Positions 4,044-54,627 of a stretch of DNA of 64,000 nt are shown in pieces; the stretch's first letter is position 1; every line of letters begins with the position of its first letter. Location: positions 310,001 through 374,000 of the forward strand of contig NIVC01000882.1 in assembly GCA_002269645.1 (NCBI GenBank), written 5' to 3'. The stretch comes from Macrostomum lignano. Taxonomy: Eukaryota. Both the position numbers and the translations under genes were made by a program. The notes under the pieces were generated by a model. The model was given only the letters and a program-made list of their open reading frames with translations. It searched no databases and was not told the DNA's origin.

Positions 4044-4693
4044 ACTGCAGTCCCTCATCCTCCGTATCATCTTGTCCCGGCCATATTGCCATGTCACCAA
4101 GGGAGGCAAAATAAAATTTTACTGAAAGTCAAGCTTAAGTGCGGCCGCTAAAGCTGCTGTCTTTCCTGTCACAGAAATCCCCGGATTATCCTTCCCGCAC
4201 TGACTGACTCGTCTCTATGCCTTTCTGTATTTGCTCCCCTCTCAGTGGGGAAGATTATCCCACTGGATGCCGAATCCTCTGGTTGGGGATAAAGGAGCTA
4301 TAAAGCACAGCTGTTTGGTTATCTTCATCCCACCTGCTCTGCAAAGGGATAAAAGACAATAAAGACTAGAGAGGGCAGTAAGCTGTGGGGGTGGGGGTTG
4401 CCTGACCGGCCTCAGCTCGGCGCAAAGAGGCCCGGCTCTGCCTACCCACCTGCCTTCCTACCTGGCAATTAGTTACTATCGCCGGCAGTCGATAATTCTG
4501 CGTGATTGATCGGTTCGTATTTGTCCACTCTGCCCCTCAGCCTCTTCCCCTCTGGCATGCTCAACGAGTGAGAATTGCTCTGAGGAGGCGGCCTGGGCTC
4601 AGTGCTGGAGTTCTGGCAGCAAATAGATTTCTAGACAAGAAAGCACGCTTCGACTGTCTCGCGCGGTTTCCCTTAGACGGTCTGTGTTCCTAC

Positions 4694-5538
<845 letters not shown>

Positions 5539-9791: not shown

Positions 9792-11242
9792 GTCTAAACA
9801 ATCACTGAACTGCCCTCTATAGATGCTACTTGAGTGAGTAATACTTTGGAAACTACCTAATATGTTTCTGCTTTCTGCGTTAGTTGCAAAATCTTCGCTT
9901 TGAGTGCGGCATAGTGTAGTGTAGGTACCTAAACAAGTTTCTAACTTCATATTTCTGTGCAAAATTCTCTAACTTCGTACATTAGTATCGAGAGTTTGAA
10001 ACGGTTTAAACAACGTATTAACAAACAACCGCCAACTGAATAAAAAAGCAGACAGAAGAAATATTGCGAATCTCGTTCATGTACGCTTGCACCTCTTACC
10101 TCTAAGCCTCACCTTGCTGCGGGGTGTGTGTGTGCCACGAATACTTCGCCATACGGTATGTGGAGGTTATACCTGAATGCAAATGCAAGGAATGAATACA
10201 AACAATCGTGCAATGCATTCGCTATCGCATGGCGTGAGAGTTGTGCAATGTCAGAGGCAGCCAGTGCTTGTGTGCGTGCGCAAAATGTCTGTCAGCCCCA
10301 GAGGGCGTCCTCTCTACCTCAGCCGACCAGCCCCCACGCTATCGGGTCTTGACTGCGTGCAGCCGCCGCCAACCACCGCATTCGAAAGAGTGCGAACAGG
10401 GCCCTAGTTATGTACAGCGTGCGGAAAGACCTCTGACCACCCACCCCACCACCCGAGCACCCCAAAGCCTTTGCTAGCTGGAAGCGCGCTTGTAAAAACT
10501 GGTCAACGCTAAGAGGCAGAGGCCGGCTACCTTAGTCTTCTAATTTCTGCTTTTAGATACATTTCTTAGCCGGCTTTGCCACCATAGTTTTGTCTGACAA
10601 ATTTCCAAGTTTTTCAAGCGAGCTTGGTTAACTGCCTGTGCAGAAAGTCGAGCTTCTTATTACTGGGAAGATTTTCATCTATAGCTGAGCAATGAAAAAA
10701 GCCCTAGCAAATCTTGCCCTGGGCTGCGTTGGGGCGCATGGAAGTGCTCAAAAAGAGAAAGAGTTGGCCGATAGATCCAGCCAGCCGATAGCCAAGCCAG
10801 ATTGTAGCGCTGAGGATCTGGTAGCTGAAGGTAAGGTGACCCCCAAAACGTATCTGAAGCATTGAAACGCACATTGAAATGGCATCCGATTTAAAACTTT
10901 TACTTTTATCATTTTTAGCCGGAAATGACAGCGTGCAGTCTATTAATGGGTGAGTGACGAATCTATACGTGTACATTTACATTATAGCTCGTGTAGTCAT
11001 TGGTGAATGAATGCTCCTCTGTGATGGACCCGCAGCAGCGCTAGCCGCACGAGCAGCACGTCGGATGTCACCCGGACAGAACGAGCTGAGATTTTTCTCA
11101 GGGTAAGATTTTACAGATGCATTAGATAGAGCAGCAGGCAGGACATTGAAAGCCAGTGTCAGATCTGGAGATTCTCGATAGAGGGTTGGGAGGTGACAAA
11201 GTCTTGGGCCAGTCGAAGGACCAACGCTCGTATTGGTAGCTT

Positions 11243-14200
11243 CCTAGCTCCATCGGATGAACCTGAGGGTAGCTCCATCGGATGAATCTGAGGGTAGCTC
11301 CATCGGATGAACCTGAGGGTAGCTCCATCGGATGAATCTGAGGGTAGCTCCATCGGATGAATCTGAGGTTAGCTCCATCGGATGAACCTGAGGGTAGCTC
11401 CATCGGATGAACCTGAGGTTAGCTCCATCGGATGAATCTGAGGGTAGCTCCATCGGATGAATCTGAGGTTAGCTCCATCGGATGAATCTGAGGGTAGCTC
11501 CATCGGATGAACCTGAGGGTAGCTCCATCGGATGAACCTGAGGGTAGCTCCATCGGATGAACCTGAGGGTAGCTCCATCGGATGAACCTGAGGGTAGCTC
11601 CATCGGATGAATCTGAGGGTAGCTCCATCGGATGAATCTGAGGTTAGCTCCATCGGATGAATCTGAGGTTAGCTCCATCGGATGAATCTGAGGGTAGCTC
11701 CATTGGATGAATCTGTGAGTTGCTCCATCGGATGAACCTGAGGGTAGCTCCATCGGATGAACCTGAGGGTAGCTCCATCGGATGAATCTGAGGTTAGCTC
11801 CATCGGATGAACCTGAGGGTAGCTCCATCGGATGAATCTGAGGGTAGCTCCATCGGATGAACCTGAGGGTAGCTCCATCGGATGAACCTGAGGGTAGCTC
11901 CATCGGATGAACCTGAGGGTAGCTCCATCGGATGAACCTGAGGGTAGCTCCATCGGATGAATCTGAGGGTAGCTCCATCGGATGAATCTGAGGGTAGCTC
12001 CATAGGATGAACCCGAGGGTAGCTCCATCGGATGAATCTGAGGGTAGCTCCATCGGATGAACCTGAGGGTAGCTCCATCGGATGAATCTGAGGGTAGCTC
12101 CATCGGATGAACCTGAGGTTAGCTCCATCGGATGAACCTGAGGGTAGCTCCATCGGATGAACCTGAGGGTAGCTCCATCGGATGAACCTGAGGGTAGCTC
12201 CATCGGATGAACCTGAGGGTAGCTCCATCGGATGAATCTGAGGGTAGCTCCATCGGATGAATCTGAGGGTAGCTCCATCGGATGAATATGAGGATAGCTC
12301 CATCGGATGAATCTGAGGGTAGCTCCATCGGATGAACCTGAGGGTAGCTCCATCGGATGAATCTGAGGGTAGCTCCATCGGATGAACCTGAGGGTAGCTC
12401 CATCGGATGAACCTGAGGGTAGCTCCATCGGATGAACCTGAGGGTAGCTCCATCGGATGAACCCGAGGGTAGCTCCATCGGATGAACCTGAGGGTAGCTC
12501 CATCGGATGAACCTGAGGGTAGCTCCATCGGATGAACCTGAGGTTAGCTCCATCGGATGAACCTGAGGTTAGCTCCATCGGATGAATCTGAGGGTAGCTC
12601 CATCGGATGAATCTGAGGGTAGCTCCATCGGATGAACCTGAGGGTAGCTCCATCGGATGAACCTGAGGGTAGCTCCATCGGATGAACCTGAGGGTAGCTC
12701 CATTGGATGAATCTGTGAGTTGCTCCATCGGATGAACCTGAGGGTAGCTCCATCGGATGAACCTGAGGTTAGCTCCATCGGATGAATCTGAGGGTAGCTC
12801 CATCGGATGAATCTGAGGGTAGCTCCATCGGATGAATCTGAGGGTAGCTCCATCGGATGAATCTGAGGTTAGCTCCATCGGATGAATCTGAGGGTAGCTC
12901 CATTGGATGAATCTGTGAGTTGCTCCATCGGATGAACCTGAGGGTAGCTCCATCGGATGAACCTGAGGGTAGCTCCATCGGATGAATCTGAGGGTAGCTC
13001 CATCGGATGAACCTGAGGGTAGCTCCATCGGATGAACCTGAGGGTAGCTCCATCGGATGAACCTGAGGGTAGCTCCATCGGATGAACCTGAGGGTAGCTC
13101 CATCGGATGAACCTGAGGGTAGCTCCATCGGATGAACCTGAGGGTAGCTCCATCGGATGAACCTGAGGGTAGCTCCATCGGATGAACCTGAGGGTAGCTC
13201 CATCGAATGAATCTGAGGGTAGCTCCATCGGATGAACCTGAGGGTAGCTCCATCGGATGAACCTGAGGGTAGCTCCATCGGATGAACCTGAGGGTAGCTC
13301 CATCGGATGAACCTGAGGGTAGCTCCATCGGATGAACCCGAGGGTAGCTCCATCGGATGAACCCGAGGGTAGCTCCATCGGATGAATCTGAGGGTAGCTC
13401 CATCGGATGAATCTGAGGGTAGCTCCATCGGATGAACCTGAGGGTAGCTCCATCGGATGAACCTGAGGGTAGCTCCATCGGATGAATCTGAGGGTAGCTC
13501 CATCGGATGAATCTGAGGGTAGCTCCATCGGATGAATCTGAGGGTAGCTCCATCGGATGAACCTGAGGTTAGCTCCATCGGATGAATCTGAGGGTAGCTC
13601 CATCGGATGAACCTGAGGGTAGCTCCATCGGATGAACCTGAGGGTAGCTCCATCGGATGAACCTGAGGGTAGCTCCATCGGATGAATCTGAGGGTAGCTC
13701 CATCGGATGAATCTGAGGTTAGCTCCATCGGATGAATCTGAGGGTAGCTCCATCGGATGAATCTGAGGGTAGCTCCATCGGATGAATCTGAGGGTAGCTC
13801 CATCGGATGAATATGAGGATAGCTCCATCGAGGGACCTGTGGGTAGCTCCATCGAGGGACCTGTGGGTAGCTCCATCGAATGACCTGAGGGTAGCTCCAT
13901 CGGATGAACCGAGGGTAGCTCCATCGGATGAACCTGAGGGTAGCTCCATCGGATGAATCTGAGGGTAGCTCCATCGGATGAATCTGAGGGTAGCTCCATC
14001 GGATGAACCTGAGGGTAGCTCCATCGGATGAATCTGAGGGTAGCTCCATCGGATGAATCTGAGGGTAGCTCCATCGGATGAATCTGAGGGTAGCTCCATC
14101 GGATGAACCTGAGGTTAGCTCCATCGGATGAACCTGAGGGTAGCTCCATCGGATGAACCTGAGGGTAGCTCCATCGGATGAACCTGAGGGTAGCTCCATC

Positions 14201-14690
14201 GGATGAACCTGAGGGTAGCTCCATCGGATGAATCTGAGGGTAGCTCCATCGGATGAATCTGAGGTTAGCTCCATCGGATGAATCTGAGGGTAGCTCCATC
14301 GGATGAATCTGAGGGTAGCTCCATCGGATGAATCTGAGGGTAGCTCCATCGGATGAATATGAGGATAGCTCCATCGAGGGACCTGTGGGTAGCTCCATCG
14401 AGGGACCTGTGGGTAGCTCCATCGAATGACCTGAGGGTAGCTCCATCGAATGACCTGTGGGTAGCTCCATCGAATGACCTGTGGGTAGCTCCATCGAATG
14501 ACCTGTGGGTAGCTCCATCGAATGACCTGTGGGTAGCTCCATTGAATGACCTTTGGGTAGCTCCATCGAATGACCTGTGGGTAGCTCCATCGAGGGACCT
14601 GTGGGTAGCTCCATCGAATGACCTGTGGGTAGCTCCATCGAATGAACTGTGGGTAGCTCCATCGAATGACCTGTTGGTAGTACCATTCCA
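11243..14690. repeat. 25-bp minisatellite (AGGGTAGCTCCATCGGATGAAYCTG)n, about 3.4 kb, grading into 24-bp variants at the right end; intronic in the RhoGEF
   Basis: Direct tandem copies with no unique spacers; source of the MELPSGSSDG/RFIRWSYPQ ORFs. Confidence 0.98.
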
Positions 14691-25568: not shown

Positions 25569-28500
25569 TCAGAGCAGCGGCAGCACCAGCACAATGAACA
25601 GAAGGATGACCGCCAGCACGCCGACGGTCATCAGGCCCTGGTCGATGCGCGTCGCCAGCCGCTTCATCGCCTGCGGACAGTCGGCATCGGTCCCTACCGC
25701 CCGCAGCGCCGCCCGCAACGGCTTCCAGCTCAGTCTGGATGAGTCGTCGCCGGACAACCCGACCAGGCGGCTGGTGGCCGCGATGGCGCAGACGTAGAGA
25801 GAGGCGATCAGCATCAGGCCATTGAGGAAGTGGCCTGACAATGGTTTTCAAGGAATAGGACATAGGGTTAGTCGATAGAGTTTGAACTACAGATAGGACT
25901 TTATGGGGATGATACGTGTCTTGGCGTACTACTGAGTAAAACATCAAACTGATGTAAAAAGATGTAGCCTTCAGGCCAAAGATTAGCAACTGACTGATTC
26001 TTTCGGTATAAATTAATCATCGAAAACTTACTCAGAGCTGGAACCTGCTTGATTTTAGGCATCATCTGATCGGTGAGCATGAGGTAGACTGTGAACGCCA
26101 GCAGCACAGTCAGCGACAGCTGGATCTTCTCCGACCCGTTGGACACCGGCAGTGAGAACACCATGAACAGCAGCAGGACCAGGTAGAGCACAGGTAGCAG
26201 CATGCTCACCAAGTAGTACCGGTGCTCCCGGCGTACGCTAATTGAGAACGTGTACACCGAGCGGCGGTACCCGCCTGGCCAGGCCACTGCGGCGACGCTG
26301 TCCGCCACGGTCAGCACCTGCCAGCCGCCGTTGCAGCCGGCCAGGAAGTCGGCCGGGCCATCGTTAGTGGTGCGCAGCTCGAAGCGGGCCTCCGAGTCCG
26401 ACAGGCTGTCGGAGAATAGCACCTGCGGCGAGGAGATGAAGGGCGGGAAGATTCAGTGGGATGGTCAGGGCAAAAGTCCTAATTCAGCAACCTCCAGTTT
26501 TAATTTTTATTAAGAGCCAGGGGGGCTGTGTGCCCATTCCGCCCGACTCCTCTGAGCAGGCACACAAGCGCGCGGATACGTACGCAGTCATACGCACAGG
26601 TACACACTCACACAGGAGTGTACAGCGGCCCTAACTTTATTTATCGTTAGGCATGTACACTTCACTGCGCTTTGGGGGGTTGGCCTTCAAGGGCTTTAAT
26701 TGCACGAGCAGAGCCAAGCCGAGATTCTAATTCAGCCCCAAATTAATGCGACTGCACTTGGAATCGAGTCTAGGCCGCTGGCGCATCAGAGCGCCGCGCC
26801 AGACCACTGGGCTACGGCCGTCCGGCACCTCCAGTTGACCCAGACTGTTCGCGGGAGAGACCTCTAGTCTTCCAACGTTTTCTACCGAAAATTGTAACTA
26901 ACATACGCGAGTCTTTTAGCTTGAGCATTTATACAAATACCTGAGACGGTAGTTGGGAGCTAAATCGACTTCAACAAGAAGCTTCGGGCCTTGTTGACAT
27001 TCCAGGCGGTCTCAGTTACTCTTTAGTTTTGAAAGTTTGCAATGTTACAAAAATGTAGCACAAATTCCACTAAGTTTTACATTTAACACATCTTTCGAGA
27101 CATTTTGGACAGCTTTGGGGGTTAACTGTATTTACACAGGGGGGCCGTAGCCCAGCGGTAGCGCAGCTGCTCTGGTGTGCCAGCGACCCAGGCTCGATTC
27201 CAAGTGCAGTCACATTAATTTGGGGCTGAATTGGAATCTCGGCTTGGCTCTGCTCGTGCAATTAACGGCCTTGAGAGCCAACCCCCCAAGGCGCAGTGAA
27301 GTGTACATGCCTAACGATAAATAAAGTTAGGGCCGCTGTACACTCCTGTGTGATTGTGTGCCTGCGTACGTATCCGCGCGCTTGTGTGCCTGCTCAGGGG
27401 AGTCGGCGGAATGGGCAGCAATGCCTCTCGCCGGTTGTGTGCCAATGTCGCTTAAAGTGCGCCAGGGTGCACACAACCCCCTGCCTCTAATAAAAAAAAA
27501 CTGTATTTATACAGGTGTAAACAGAGAACAATGTAAACGGCCGACCAGGAACAATGAGCATCAAGCAATGCGACCTTCACCTGAAAGCTGCAGTTATGCC
27601 GATCTTTGGGAAAGTGCACAAAGTTGACGTGATCGCAGTGGCCCACTGGCTGCAGAATGAGCTCCGTAGATGCGGCCATCAGCCGTCCCGTTGACGTGTG
27701 TCGCTCCATGCGAAGTCGATGCTGCGGATGCAGCGCCTGTCGGTCCGGGTCGGCGATTTCGGCATTCCACAGGGCCAGCCTGGGCTGCCAGTGCGCCGGG
27801 CTGTCGGCGGACAGATTCCAGCGCTGCAGCGGGTGTGAGAGCTTGTGATTACCGAGTGACAGTGAGTGTTCAGGCACCAGATGCCAAGTGACAGTGAGTG
27901 TTCGGGCACCAGATGCCGAGGGACAGTGAGTGTTCGGGCATTAGATGCCGAGTGACAGTGAGTGTTCGGGCACCAGATGCCGAGGGACAGTGAGTGTTCG
28001 GGCACCAGATGCCGAGGGACAGTGAGTGTTCGGGCACCAGATGCCGAGGGACAGTGAGTGTTCGGGGACCATGCAGATGCCGAGGGACAGTGGGTGTTCG
28101 GTGGGTGTTCACTACCGAGTGATAGTGATTTTGAGACTGAGTGATGTTTGGGTATCAGAGAAATTATTCGGAGTACAAGGTGCTACAAGTAAGCTCACTT
28201 TTCAGCTGTTGTACTACTCACTCAGGGATCTTGAGTAGTACAAGTGCAAGACAGTATATAGGGACTTTGTCTCACCAGTGCCAAAACTCCGCTGCTGTAG
28301 AACGTTTGACTGCTTACATCCTAAAATTGATGAGTGAAACTGTTTTCAGCAGAATAAAATTGAGCACATTCTGAATAGAAAATAGTCTCTAACCATGCTG
28401 TGAATCTTCTGCACGTAATAACGAATTTCCACTACGCGGGTGTCCACGCGGTGCGGCTCCTGGTCAGCAGCTCTCGGGGCCTTCGCGCTTGAATAAACAA

Positions 28501-34882: not shown

Positions 34883-36400
34883 ATCGTACTGATGCTGGTG
34901 TGGTCTCTTCAGACCCCTGTAATGGCGTGGAGGAAAGTTACAAATTAGCAACCTAGGGTGGTATCCTTTGCAACCAGATACTGAAGCACGAACAAGAGGT
35001 GAAATTTAGCTTAATAACTGAGCAATACGAATTCGCGTGCCTTTTGATGTGTCGGATAGGGGATTTTAAATTGAGCATAACGGTAGGCAGTTGAAGTTTT
35101 CCATTAAATTGGGTTTTATATCACAGGAAAAAATTGTTGATGAACTGGCTATACTGCGATTAATATAACAGGTTTTATGAATAACTGAAAAATCTTTGCC
35201 GGCGATCAAAGATGACCGAACCGAAGCACAATCTGCTGTGCACGAGCTTTTGCTGCTATATATCAAAATAAGGCCGAATGTTTTTGCCCGTAAATGCTTT
35301 TAGAAAAGCCAAGCAGATATTTCACTATCTTCAACGTGAACCAGACACTCAAACAGATTCCTGTCCTGTCGAGCATTTCAGTAGCTTAGAAGCACCATTG
35401 TACTTGAATGTCAGTGTGACTTACAGTCTTCTCACGCTCAAACTCAACTCAACCAAACAAACTGTAACTCAGTTCATAAACAATGCATCAATCAGACATA
35501 TCAAAGCTGAAGCTCACGAAGAACCTATAGCATTAGAACGTACAGTACCATGTATTTTTATACCAATACCTTGGTTGCATTGTTCAGCACATTCCCATGC
35601 AGTTGCTCTGCCAATGCCCGCCGAAGGTTCTGACCGCGGAAATGAAAAGAAAAATGCTTTGCATACGAAAGAGCATTGCGATGAAATGTCAGGGGAATGT
35701 GTAAAACTGGGGAGAGTGGAAGTGGCTATTTCACACTCACATAATAGCAAAAACTGCAAGCATACCTCACTGCTTCACGAACACCCGTGATGCCATTTAT
35801 ATCTCTTGCAAGAACTCCTTGGTCGCCAATGATCCCGGTCGTGCTGCTGCCGACGGCGCTCTTGATGATTCCGGCGTTACCTCCAGGGACGCCGCCGACA
35901 CCGCCGCTAGCGCCGCTATTGCTGTCATCTCCGTATGGGAAGCTACTCACTAGTTGACGGGTAGAGCGAAGATCTGCATCCAGGTTTGGCGAAGTGCATG
36001 GCGAACTGCCAGGAGACGATGAAGACATAGAAGAGACTGTGGCAACTTTAAGCCGCTTGTTATCAACCTGTGGAGCTGATGCTGGCAATCCCTGGCTAGT
36101 CTGTTGCAGCTCTGCCATCAGTGCTTTCAGCAGTGCCTCCGGGTTGCTTTGACTCATGCTAATAGCTGTCGACGTCTGGTTTTGAGGCTGCGAAGACTGA
36201 GTCATAAGAGCTGTTAGCATTGCTTGCGTCTGCGCAGTTTGGTTCGCTAGCGCTTGTAGAAGGCTCGCTAGATCCCCACTACTTGGCGAAGGCAACTGCA
36301 GCGGTGTTGAAGCCGGCTGCCACGCCGGATTAACCTTGGAGTTCATCTGCTGGCTTCGGTCTGAATTATTTCTTAGTGTGGAGCCGTCTAGAAGTTTCAT
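31016..36400 (-). CDS. NFAT5: NFAT5-type Rel homology transcription factor; RHD/IPT exons 33066-32908, 32502-32306, 32227-32007, 31794-31408, 31284-31016; probable N-terminal exons 36400-35766, 34916-about 34790, 33306-33205
   Basis: [31 protein letters not shown]; [13 protein letters not shown]; [13 protein letters not shown]; VRLVFRV; CQPTGQPEI...[11 protein letters not shown]...NHLVCRVP...FTYLP. These are NFAT/NFAT5 RHD and IPT signatures. The N-terminal exons are assigned by strand and phase only. Confidence 0.9.
32547..32815. repeat. 32-bp minisatellite (AGGTGGAAACAGGTTCTGTTTGTTGCTGTCTG)n in an NFAT intron
   Basis: Direct inspection. Confidence 0.94.
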
Positions 36401-38169: not shown

Positions 38170-38913
38170 TGTGACAGGCCTTTTGGCTCTGTCTTTCTAA
38201 ACTTCTAACTATTAGTGTTTATTAAATATCCTACGAGCTGCCACCAAAGTTGTTACAGGCCTTTCACCTCTTACTTTATCAATTTTAATCCCACCGATTT
38301 GCCAACTACAGTTATCCTGATTATACTTGCTTTTACTCCCTAACTATTTCTTAGAATTTCATTTAAATATTTCTGGGTAGCGTTCTTAGTAGCGTTTCTG
38401 GTAGCTTATGGCTTGCTTTCTGGTAGCGTTCTAGTAGCTTATGGCCTGAGCGGTCTAGTACTGGTATATGTATTAGTGTATAGTCCTAATCGGGCGTTCA
38501 CCGAGACTAGAGGGTCACGGCGCCTCTCTTGGTATATCTCCAAGAATTAGTCCCAATTCCCTTCTCTTAGCAAATTTCTTAGAATCGTTTCACAGGTTTT
38601 GCAAATAAATAAGTCGCTATTTAGCTCAAAGACTTTGAAATGGTTTAGATTGAACTGCTTATTCTGTTCGCAATTATTTGCTCACGAGTAAAAGACAGTT
38701 GGAGTATATTTGTCGCGAAACCACTCCTATATATAGTGATTTCCCCCACATACGATTAAAACAAAAAAATAATTCTCCAATTTATTTCGCGCATTAAAAC
38801 AAACTATTATTTGGCGTTCGCGTAGATTCAGTTTCTAAGAAAGATTCGAATATACAGTTATTACATTGAAAGAACATTCGAGTATACTATGATAAAGGCA
38901 TAGCACTAGTACA
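38170..38913 (-). repeat. 3' LTR
   Basis: No difference from 46080-46823 seen by eye; TATATATA at 38728-38735, AATAAA (- strand) at 38218-38223. Confidence 0.97.
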
Positions 38914-38914
38914 A

Positions 38915-38926
38915 CTTTCCTCCTCT
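38915..38926 (-). promoter_or_regulatory. Polypurine tract (AGAGGAGGAAAG)
   Basis: Purine run directly upstream of the 3' LTR on the - strand. Confidence 0.85.
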
Positions 38927-39199: not shown

Positions 39200-40072
39200 T
39201 CAGATAAACATGCAGGGTTCCGGGAGGTCGCGATAGTAGGGCCAGCCGACTTGAGCGAAAAACCATCGGTACTCTTCGTCGAGGACCGTCAGCGCTGGCG
39301 GCGGGTTGGCTCTTATAGCCGCTGGAGGCGATAGGCGACGTCCTGGAGAACAGCGACAGGTTCCTGGTAACTGAATTGATCCCTTAGAAACTTCAGGTGT
39401 CCAAATTTGCGAGCATTGGGGGTAGCGCTGTCGGCTGTCGGATCGGTGGTACGCTACTTTCAGTGCGTATTGCTCAATGTGGAAGCGTAGCTTTTCCACC
39501 TCTGCTCCGCGAGTCTCCACAAGTTCTCGGACGATGCGATGAAAATCTCTCTGCGAATTCGATTGCTGCTGGCTCGGCTGTAGTGCTGATGGCTGGCTAG
39601 ACTGCTGCGCTGATTGCAGGCTCGGCTGCAACGCTGACTGCTGCGCTGATTGCAGGCTCGGCTGCGACGCTGGCTGCTGAGCTGGCGGTGTCGCAGCTGT
39701 CGATTTCTTCTGCCGTGGTGCCGGGGTCTTTCTCGATGATGGGGCAGCTGGCGGTGACACCAACTGCTGCGTTCGGCTTGATGTCGACGATCCTGGCGTG
39801 GCCTTGACAACATAGGAGCGCACGGGCGCAGCTGCCTGTGCTGCCACCAGGGCGGCGCGCTTCTGCTCGGGGCCTTCGACCCTCATTTGGCGGCAAGGCG
39901 ATGAAGCTGGCGATGATGTTCTTGGCCGTTTGCTGGATACACCAGGCGCCTTTGGACGTGTTGCACATCGAAGCGGTGCCTCATTTTCGTCGGTGTTGGG
40001 CGCTGGCTGGGGCTCCATATCGTCTGACAGATTGCCAATTAACTCGTCCAAGATATCAATAGAGTTGTTCAT
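39200..40072 (-). CDS. Retrotransposon ORF3, 290 aa, unknown function, not env-like
   Basis: Intact ATG ORF between pol and the PPT; S/P/Q/A-rich N-terminal part, about 115-aa C-terminal part of ordinary complexity; no signal peptide or TM segment seen. Confidence 0.75.
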   Translation of the reverse strand: MNNSIDILDELIGNLSDDMEPQPAPNTDENEAPLRCATRPKAPGVSSKRPRTSSPASSPCRQMRVEGPEQKRAALVAAQAAAPVRSYVVKATPGSSTSSRTQQLVSPPAAPSSRKTPAPRQKKSTAATPPAQQPASQPSLQSAQQSALQPSLQSAQQSSQPSALQPSQQQSNSQRDFHRIVRELVETRGAEVEKLRFHIEQYALKVAYHRSDSRQRYPQCSQIWTPEVSKGSIQLPGTCRCSPGRRLSPPAAIRANPPPALTVLDEEYRWFFAQVGWPYYRDLPEPCMFI

Positions 40073-40155
40073 TTTGATTTCTCTGCGAATGGCTCTTAGA
40101 ATAGAAAGGAAGCTAGCAGTGAGCTATGGGATCTGTGGGGCCTGCAGGGTGCTCG

Positions 40156-40163
40156 TATTTATA
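40156..40163 (-). promoter_or_regulatory. TATA box (TATAAATA) of a putative internal ORF3 promoter
   Basis: CTATAAATA preceded by GC-rich CGCCCACGCGCG/CCCGCC motifs, about 85 nt upstream of the ORF3 ATG. Confidence 0.55.
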
Positions 40164-40471
40164 GGCTGGCGGGCCGAAAAACTGGACCTCTTCGAAGCAC
40201 TCCCCTCGCGCGTGGGCGGGGCATGCCAGATTTGACAGATTTGACAACTAAATTTTTATGGATTTTCTATTTCTTTTTATAACTTTTTTATTTTTTGATA
40301 GATTTTCTTGAGTAAAGTATCAAATTAAAGATCGCATTTTGTAGATTAATATGGTATTTACAGATTCGCTCTATGTACAGCATGTCAAATTTTATAAGCA
40401 GATAAGTAATTCTAATACGGAATTTTAACTATTTAACACTGTTTCTTATGGGAAATTGCTTACGTCATGAT

Positions 40472-54412: not shown

Positions 54413-54627
54413 TCTCGATTCCAAATGCAGTCACATTAAGTTGAGGCTAAATTAGAATCTCGGCTTGGCTCTGCTCGTGCAATTAACGGCCTTGAAGGCA
54501 AAAACCCCAAGGCACAGTGAAGTGTACATGCCTAACGATAAATAAAGTTAGCGCCGCTGTACACTCCTGTGTGAGTGCGTCTGTATTGCGTATGACTGCG
54601 TACGTACATGTATCCGTGCGCTTGTGG
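54413..54627 (+). mobile_element. SINE family B, truncated copy
   Basis: Colinear with the central part of 27139-27500. Confidence 0.82.

Follow-up and report, generated by a model that had tools for sequence, protein, structure and literature searches.

A third, non-env gene in a Ty3/Gypsy element of Macrostomum lignano, with a likely internal promoter and a possible role as activator of its own LTR

The extra ORFs of Ty3/Gypsy elements were regarded in the original prediction as usually env-like and made from spliced RNA. This stands as the usual route, and exceptions are found in the Env of Tor elements (internal promoter), in Grande gene23 and in the ORF3s of bdelloid rotifers. According to the accessible parts of the papers cited here, Oikopleura Tor3b/4b are animal gypsy-like elements, in which the third ORF, a membrane glycoprotein Env, is expressed from an internal promoter in the spacer between pol and ORF3, and sister groups take another expression route (PMC4402516). 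Maize Grande gene23 and Retand TRP28 are plant-specific, antisense, non-env ORFs in the interval between pol and the 3' LTR, and a regulatory role was proposed for them; the additional ORF of Grande has its own promoter and encodes a nuclear protein (PMC7264820, PMC11963269). The GDSL and DEDDy ORF3s of bdelloid rotifers are non-env genes of invertebrate Ty3/Gypsy elements and are also kept in a non-autonomous family. They are captured enzymes with known folds, are assumed to be spliced, and show mostly neutral intragenomic variation (PMC5408684). In foamy viruses, the 3' accessory gene Tas/Bel1 forms a second transcription unit with an internal promoter (PMC517496, PMC7828637), and Tas has been shown to be an acidic-class activator (PMC517496). 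VANC of the Arabidopsis VANDAL DNA transposons is a family-specific, anti-silencing accessory protein, which targets tandem motifs and diverges together with the non-coding DNA of the element (PMC6719617).

Here we describe a third gene, ORF3, of an element in a window of 64,000 nucleotides (the whole stretch of DNA that was analysed) from Macrostomum lignano. The family to which it belongs seems not to have been described before, encodes a new domain and is likely to have an internal promoter. No description of this ORF3 family was found in the literature searched; an earlier Macrostomum LTR classification might mention it. In the covered part of a Macrostomum LTR survey (part of the text, term counts and supplement 1), the term "ORF" is absent and no such gene appears (PMC12801592), and the flatworm elements treated in the accessible text of PMC13524379 are env elements only. 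In our reading, ORF3 is a conserved, selected accessory gene with a likely internal promoter, and we tentatively propose that its protein is a trans-acting activator of the element's own LTR.

The element and its ORF3 gene family

The window element is a young minus-strand Ty3/Gypsy element (Table 1). The LTRs, PBS, PPT, TSD, gag and the order PR-RT-RH-INT expected of a Ty3/Gypsy LTR retrotransposon are all present, and the reading frames of gag, pol and ORF3 are all open. Database proteins with an identical RT, or with a homologous ORF3, carry the label Macrostomum lignano. The PBS is presumably of the tRNA-Leu type. The 3' part of the LTR (46080-46220 and 38170-38310) contains duplicated LTR-end and PBS-like words, as if old ends had been captured during LTR growth. 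Elsewhere in the window, 8-bp and 25-bp tandem arrays (4540-5075, 11095-14500), a dispersed repeat of ~250 bp (26543-27475, 47326-47560, 54414-54603) and a low-complexity ORF of 224 aa with no Pfam match (35726-36400) were observed. Tandem elements with a common LTR, in which the 3' LTR is directly followed by the PBS, are present at L015 and L020 and in G000:C2404 and C241.

Table 1. Positions of the element features in the window and of the related host locus
Feature	Position	Strand	Remarks
5' LTR, TG...CA, 744 bp	46080..46823	-	identical to 3' LTR; 4-bp TSD
PBS	46065..46077	-	by sequence
gag, 334 aa, CCHC knuckle	44974..45978	-	
pol, PR-RT-RH-INT order	40472..44791	-	Ty3/Gypsy
AT-rich spacer, 75% AT, upstream ATGs present	40240..40471	-	AATAAA at 40292-40287, chance level
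GC box, CCCCGCCC at 40221	40214..40221	-	subfamily-specific; CCAAT box in most others
Core motif GGTCCAG + T run	40175..40193	-	most conserved promoter-proximal motif; also at LTR-less host locus
TATA box TATAAATA of the putative internal promoter	40156..40163	-	
Putative start region	40119..40136	-	CA at +26 to +30 and conserved TCAC at ~+43 from TATA
ORF3, 290 aa	39200..40072	-	ATG is the first one past the TATA box
Acidic N-terminus with hydrophobic helix	39983..40072	-	possibly activation-domain-like
APLR..TRP motif (invariant), then KR and KRAA basic patches	39857..39982	-	possibly NLS-like
C-terminal domain, conserved, five helices, no known family	39203..39550	-	modelled on natural sister copy L008
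Out-of-frame stretch of the window copy, codons ~225-251	39320..39400	-	flanked by two small indels
Polypurine tract	38915..38926	-	
3' LTR	38170..38913	-	AATAAA at 38786 and 38223, candidate ends of ORF3 mRNA
L122 host locus	L122:4500-5260 (G000:C846)		also L123, L124; LTR-less

A DNA search of the genome gave 40 matches (40 of the 64 candidates scored), and 33 of them are near-full-length with at least 93% identity. ORF3 is carried by all 33 near copies, so it is not absent from most siblings, and in 16 of the 33 it has its full length in the common form. Flanks are distinct in 23 of the 26 near copies with a readable 3' end. The ORF3 of the window had been called an intact frame of 290 aa. 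It is open but not intact, as two small indels near 39400 and 39320 shift codons ~225-251 in the middle of the C-domain, and 31 of the 32 other near copies have a sequence unlike the window at both sites. The first break (near 39400) is probably real because it is also present in L002, which is the same insertion as the window assembled twice and differs from the window at one indel site. The second break (near 39320) may be an assembly error. The sister form is found at the indel sites in contigs of all four sequencing runs. The window copy probably yields a garbled C-domain, and it would depend on sister copies for a working ORF3 protein. As the window ORF3 is atypical in this way, the natural sister copy L008 was used as the reference for all protein work. 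The C-domain ends quoted in the original prediction (RDFHRIV..., EYRWFF...) lie outside the out-of-frame stretch and are valid. Another frameshift, in a C run at ~39422, is common to L003, L006, L018, L019, L023 and L029, and represents either a broken sub-lineage still spreading by trans complementation or a homopolymer error.

When the genome was searched with the C-domain, 150 candidates were scored and yielded 151 matches, the most distant of which are 24-30% identical; many lie in open frames of 280-410 codons. For diversity, 46 diverged ORF3 loci were taken; these are mostly open frames, and intactness counts among them are biased. A second query found further families (RT 85-87% identical), whose ORF3s occupy the same slot and have 301-535 aa. 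Throughout the clade, the homologues occupy the interval between pol and the 3' LTR. Between subfamilies, pS of the C-domain is 0.6-0.8 (near saturation) and pN is 0.10-0.43. Where dS is finite, omega is 0.04-0.26, and that of the low-complexity N-terminal part is 0.09-0.29 (22 and 7 pairs). In every pair dN is far below dS, and no sign of positive selection was detected. Neutral evolution, named beforehand as an outcome that would speak against the gene, is thus contradicted by purifying selection across copies. ORF3 is a real, old and selected gene family of a Ty3/Gypsy clade in Macrostomum lignano. The ORF3 of L037 is a mosaic with an N-terminus of the L031/L032 type and a C-domain of the window type, pointing to recombination within ORF3.

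A search of 1.84 billion protein representatives gave six matches: four labelled M. lignano, one Logan protein and one repeat-protein artefact (P0006), which was rejected. P0007, a member of the Logan cluster, shares the layout of ORF3 and is only 39-45% identical to anything scored in G000; the family is therefore likely to be present in another genome. A search of longer proteins with the wider profile A3 gave no match, a weak result as A3 also missed P0001. In a sister clade (INT ~53%), an ORF of 236-278 aa begins 2-5 nt past the pol stop in 8 of the 20 loci examined. The alignment of its C-domain with that of ORF3 extends through 93 columns and has an hhalign E of 0.0034 with a probability of 9.5%; the J-domain control gave E 0.47. 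This ORF is a probable remote homologue of ORF3. The post-pol ORFs of L160 and L163 were rejected as homologues, as they do not align with the C-domain. They are sense ORFs of 277 and 324 aa past pol (L160:3468-4298, +; L163:2999-3970, -) in distant Gypsy families and are seemingly unrelated.

ORF3 occupies the env slot and is disrupted in 17 of the 33 near copies, as could be expected of an env-like, fusogenic protein or of a neutral passenger. Some of the breaks may be assembly errors, and the strong purifying selection argues against a passenger. The original prediction of no signal peptide or TM segment was correct: the maximum Kyte-Doolittle value of any 19-mer is at most 1.11 and a signal-like stretch is absent in all 27 homologues, and Cys residues and sequons are few. 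Both readings are largely refuted, and their chance of being right is very slight.

The spacer and expression of ORF3

The spacer between the pol stop and the PPT is AT-rich, as was expected. Its AATAAA is present, one position away from where it had been placed, and is not supported as a poly(A) site, since it occurs at chance level in shuffles (P=0.79) and 10 of 39 related promoter regions lack it upstream. Moreover, strong polyadenylation within the spacer would truncate the genomic RNA ahead of the PPT. The predicted GC box is likewise present but not conserved (4 of the 39 regions), and CCAAT at ~-50 to -105 is found in 21 of the 39. The predicted TATA box was confirmed, with a probability of 0.0125 by chance in the GC-rich part of the window spacer (2000 shuffles). 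The core motif is found in 37 of the 45 diverged loci. In the other eight, the cognate gag/pol is missing upstream and the loci are fragment-like. The TATA box after the core motif is canonical in 11 of 17 representatives and degenerate in 6, and TCAC is conserved ~43 nt 3' of it. TATA and CCAAT are also present in L125-L130, from the RT-85% families. L131 has no TATA box, which counts against the promoter reading, and was excluded from the following test with the 17 representatives.

In all 17, the first ATG more than 25 nt 3' of the TATA-like box starts the conserved frame, even in L038, L080 and L094, where the longest ORF begins further upstream. The 300 nt 5' of the box contain 2-7 ATGs. 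The product P of 1e-7 from this ATG and leader analysis is overstated because the families are related. The pattern of conserved motifs and an ATG-free leader fits a capped start that would lie between the TATA box and the ATG, and would be a poor fit to reinitiation on genomic RNA. ORF3 is thus likely to be transcribed from an internal Pol II promoter in the pol-ORF3 spacer. Quite likely, a short unspliced mRNA would begin 30-45 nt past the TATA box and end in the 3' LTR. The predicted separate accessory gene with its own promoter is therefore upheld in being selected and non-env, is likely in its internal promoter, and is not supported in its poly(A) site in the spacer. The probable homologue of the sister clade has neither spacer nor TATA box and its acidic helix is internal, which counts against both the promoter and the activator readings. 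This sister clade (L145-L156) suggests another expression route, for example reinitiation.

Splicing is the usual route for such genes in the accessible text of PMC5408684, and ORF3 could be expressed through splicing or trans-splicing of an LTR transcript, with the conserved block acting as a recombination or RNA signal. The window copy has a look-alike of a branch point, polypyrimidine tract and AG at 40123-40096, cassette breakpoints fall at 40157-40128, and the sister clade lacks a spacer promoter. However, the look-alike is present only in the window subfamily and no splice acceptor aligns across the families, the ATG-free leader starts at the TATA box, and the block persists at an LTR-less locus. 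We consider a spliced origin highly improbable. Two contigs ending at 40122 were rejected as a 5' end, as X10 shows a graph fork between two ORF3 alleles. None of the seven listed joints of assembled contigs enters the ORF3 leader, although contigs cannot show the absence of splicing. Leader-like loose ends number zero in the contigs of four runs, which are not on record as RNA and cannot show absence. The contigs X2, X6 and X15 span pol, the spacer and ORF3, and have no bearing on transcript structure. Rfam gave no match, and a sigma-70 promoter scan was set aside as the host is an animal.

The LTR-less locus is present in three copies (L122-L124) with flanks 94-99% identical. It contains the promoter block, the TATA box, TCAC, and a C-domain-only ORF of 118 aa with AATAAA downstream of it; gag, pol and LTRs are absent within 10 kb. 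The ORF has neither the acidic N-terminus nor the terminal GWP..C.F motif, and the locus carries an NCBI gene annotation. Against the nearest elements the ORF is synonymously saturated, and the core block is 74-76% identical, compared with ~55% for the far upstream spacer. As the core block is kept here, it is argued to work as DNA outside a replicating element. Among the differences between the copies, 8 of 12 are synonymous across pairs, which is weak evidence. It may be speculated that this ORF is a domesticated, dominant-negative repressor.

The ORF3 protein and its possible role

According to the ORF3 alignment, an N-terminal D/E-rich helix (DDFLxxLL-type, LxxLL-like) is followed by variable repeats, the invariant APLR..TRP motif, the KR and KRAA patches, more repeats and the C-domain of ~115 aa. 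The net charge of the first 30 aa is -7 to -10 in 22 of 27 homologues, namely in all those whose longest ORF begins at the conserved start. The C-domain is modelled as five helices (pLDDT 89, pTM 0.85), and the rest is predicted to be disordered except for two short helices, one of them at the N-terminus. In the conserved columns of the C-domain (at least 60% of rows, column 118 included), 8 are basic and 5 are acidic. By resemblance to familiar patterns, these parts may be an activation domain, an NLS and a nucleic-acid-binding domain.

The C-domain had been called unrecognised, and the searches agree. No Pfam family matches ORF3 (PF04195, the TRP28 domain, included), and the sequence search of the PDB gave best E values of 0.14 and 0.071. 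Foldseek gave no match at E<=0.001 to PDB and viral structures, and the Atlas search gave no usable match. The VIA fold search gave the AppA helical bundle (best Z 7.5, rmsd 2.5, 82 aligned) and KaiA (Z 7.6, rmsd 3.1, 81 aligned), both of which lie within the noise level of helical bundles; the likeness to AppA (also E 0.13 by sequence) was treated as generic. A J-domain identity was rejected, since HPD is absent from the alignments A2-A4 and hhalign against 11 J-domains gave E 0.47 and 0.15. J-domains themselves are present in high copy in ~332-codon frames (G000:C303:646432 and ~20 equal-scoring loci; G000:C245:56290 and ~20 more). The C-domain is thus a new domain that is confidently modelled.

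Elements with 97-100% identical RT nucleotides carry ORF3 C-domains only 43-80% identical. Among the elements whose RT protein is 100% identical to that of the window (dS 0.036-0.085), the C-domains are 55-99% identical. L083 and L094 share 99.3% of RT nucleotides, compared with 43% in the C-domain and 63% in U3. The similarity to the window stops inside the promoter, at 40128 in L038 and at 40157 in L076. In the deeper branches, the trees of RT and ORF3, with 13 rows in each, are in rough agreement. In addition, 18 loci have paired LTRs (93-100% identical) and a short Gag-like ORF or remnant but no RT, and 12 of the 18 keep a full ORF3. For the 11 pol-less elements with a U3 call, ORF3 and U3 give the same best autonomous partner in 8, and 3 are near-ties. 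These results indicate that ORF3-U3 cassettes are swapped on near-identical pol backbones. The linkage could come from adjacency alone, which counts against functional matching, and in L032 and L037 the LTR is 96% identical and ORF3 is synonymously saturated, which counts against a matched cassette. The Gag-like ORF of the pol-less L031, L071, L084, L088, L092 and L103 has 191-197 aa, lies directly past the 5' LTR and is ~38% identical to Gag 1-147. It has a hydrophobic stretch, an unusual CxxC...H.C knuckle and no Pfam match.

If ORF3 is an activator, its basic patches would direct it to the nucleus, binding to family-specific LTR DNA or to chromatin would fall to the basic, helical C-domain, and co-activators would be recruited by the acidic helix. 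Taken together, these steps fall a little short of probable, and they are the reading that we prefer. Such a model would account for the joint movement of ORF3 and U3, as a matched cassette, between pol backbones and into elements that lack pol. The composition and predicted helix of the acidic N-terminus fit an activation domain, and the predicted layout speaks more for a transcriptional activator than for a generic silencing suppressor. Acidic helices are also generic docking motifs. The activator is opposed by the lack of a DNA-binding fold matching the C-domain and by the core motif, which has a look-alike in just 4 of 30 LTRs. No response element shared by the internal promoter and its own LTR was found, as shared 8-mers number 4.5 on average compared with 5.2 for other LTRs, a comparison that is weak for degenerate sites.

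The missing LTR response element would suit a counter-defence adaptor. In this case the helical domain would engage a silencing factor of the host (from the piRNA or chromatin pathway) and the acidic helix would recruit another host protein, so that repression is lifted without classical transactivation, in a VANC-like or viral accessory-like manner. Most of the weak fold matches are to helical bundles that bind proteins, and deeply diverged old alleles on homogeneous pol backbones resemble an arms race. On the other hand, dN below dS in all pairs does not suggest such a race, pol-less elements need not carry a general suppressor in cis, and the acidic helix, NLS-like patches and basic domain suit an activator no less well. 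We regard such an adaptor as unlikely, though worth considering. The basic conserved surface, and ORF3 kept in pol-less elements with a short Gag-like ORF, would also be consistent with a post-transcriptional helper, which binds element RNA or Gag for export, packaging or nuclear entry of cDNA. For such a helper, which we consider improbable, the conserved acidic, activation-like N-terminus is unexpected, and so is the C-domain-only copy that persists at the host locus without LTR or Gag.

The activator proposal can be extended to a "complex" retrotransposon, which would encode a transactivator specific for its LTR, with a novel fold for DNA binding and with expression from an internal promoter. 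The ORF3-U3 cassettes would be the family identity, swapped between pol backbones and acquired by pol-less parasites, and the activation-less host copy of the C-domain would be a dominant-negative restriction factor. As a whole, this extended scheme is rather unlikely.

Comparison with known systems

The following comparisons hold for the accessible parts of the sources given above. The flatworm ORF3 shares with Tor an animal gypsy-like element, a likely internal promoter in the pol-ORF3 spacer, and sister groups with another expression route, and differs in being soluble and non-env. Like Grande gene23 and Retand TRP28, it lies between pol and the 3' LTR and is non-env with a regulatory role proposed, whereas it is a sense gene of an animal with no Pfam match. 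Unlike the bdelloid ORF3s, with which it shares an invertebrate, non-env setting and retention in non-autonomous elements, it has an orphan fold and is under strong purifying selection. It resembles VANC in being family-specific and in diverging together with the non-coding DNA of the element, although no tandem target motifs were found for ORF3.

In the literature searched, no LTR retrotransposon with a demonstrated transcriptional activator of its own was found; the additional ORFs of plants are merely proposed to be regulatory. Macrostomum lignano already has transgenesis and LTR reporters in use, according to the covered part of PMC12801592. The natural cognate and non-cognate ORF3-LTR pairs, together with the truncated host copy, allow a direct test of the activator model.

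The closest likeness in arrangement is to foamy-virus Tas/Bel1, as in both cases a 3' accessory gene forms a second transcription unit with an internal promoter, which is likely here. The acidic class of activator, shown for Tas, may apply to ORF3. Ty3/Gypsy elements are not Retroviridae, env is absent here, and the acidic part is N-terminal in ORF3 and C-terminal in Tas. Pfam and fold searches gave no match to Tas/Bel1 (remote homology may escape such searches), and, unlike in Tas, no response element common to the internal promoter and the LTR was found. If the proposal is true, this env-less Ty3/Gypsy clade would have arrived at a Tas-like circuit by convergence with the complex retroviruses.
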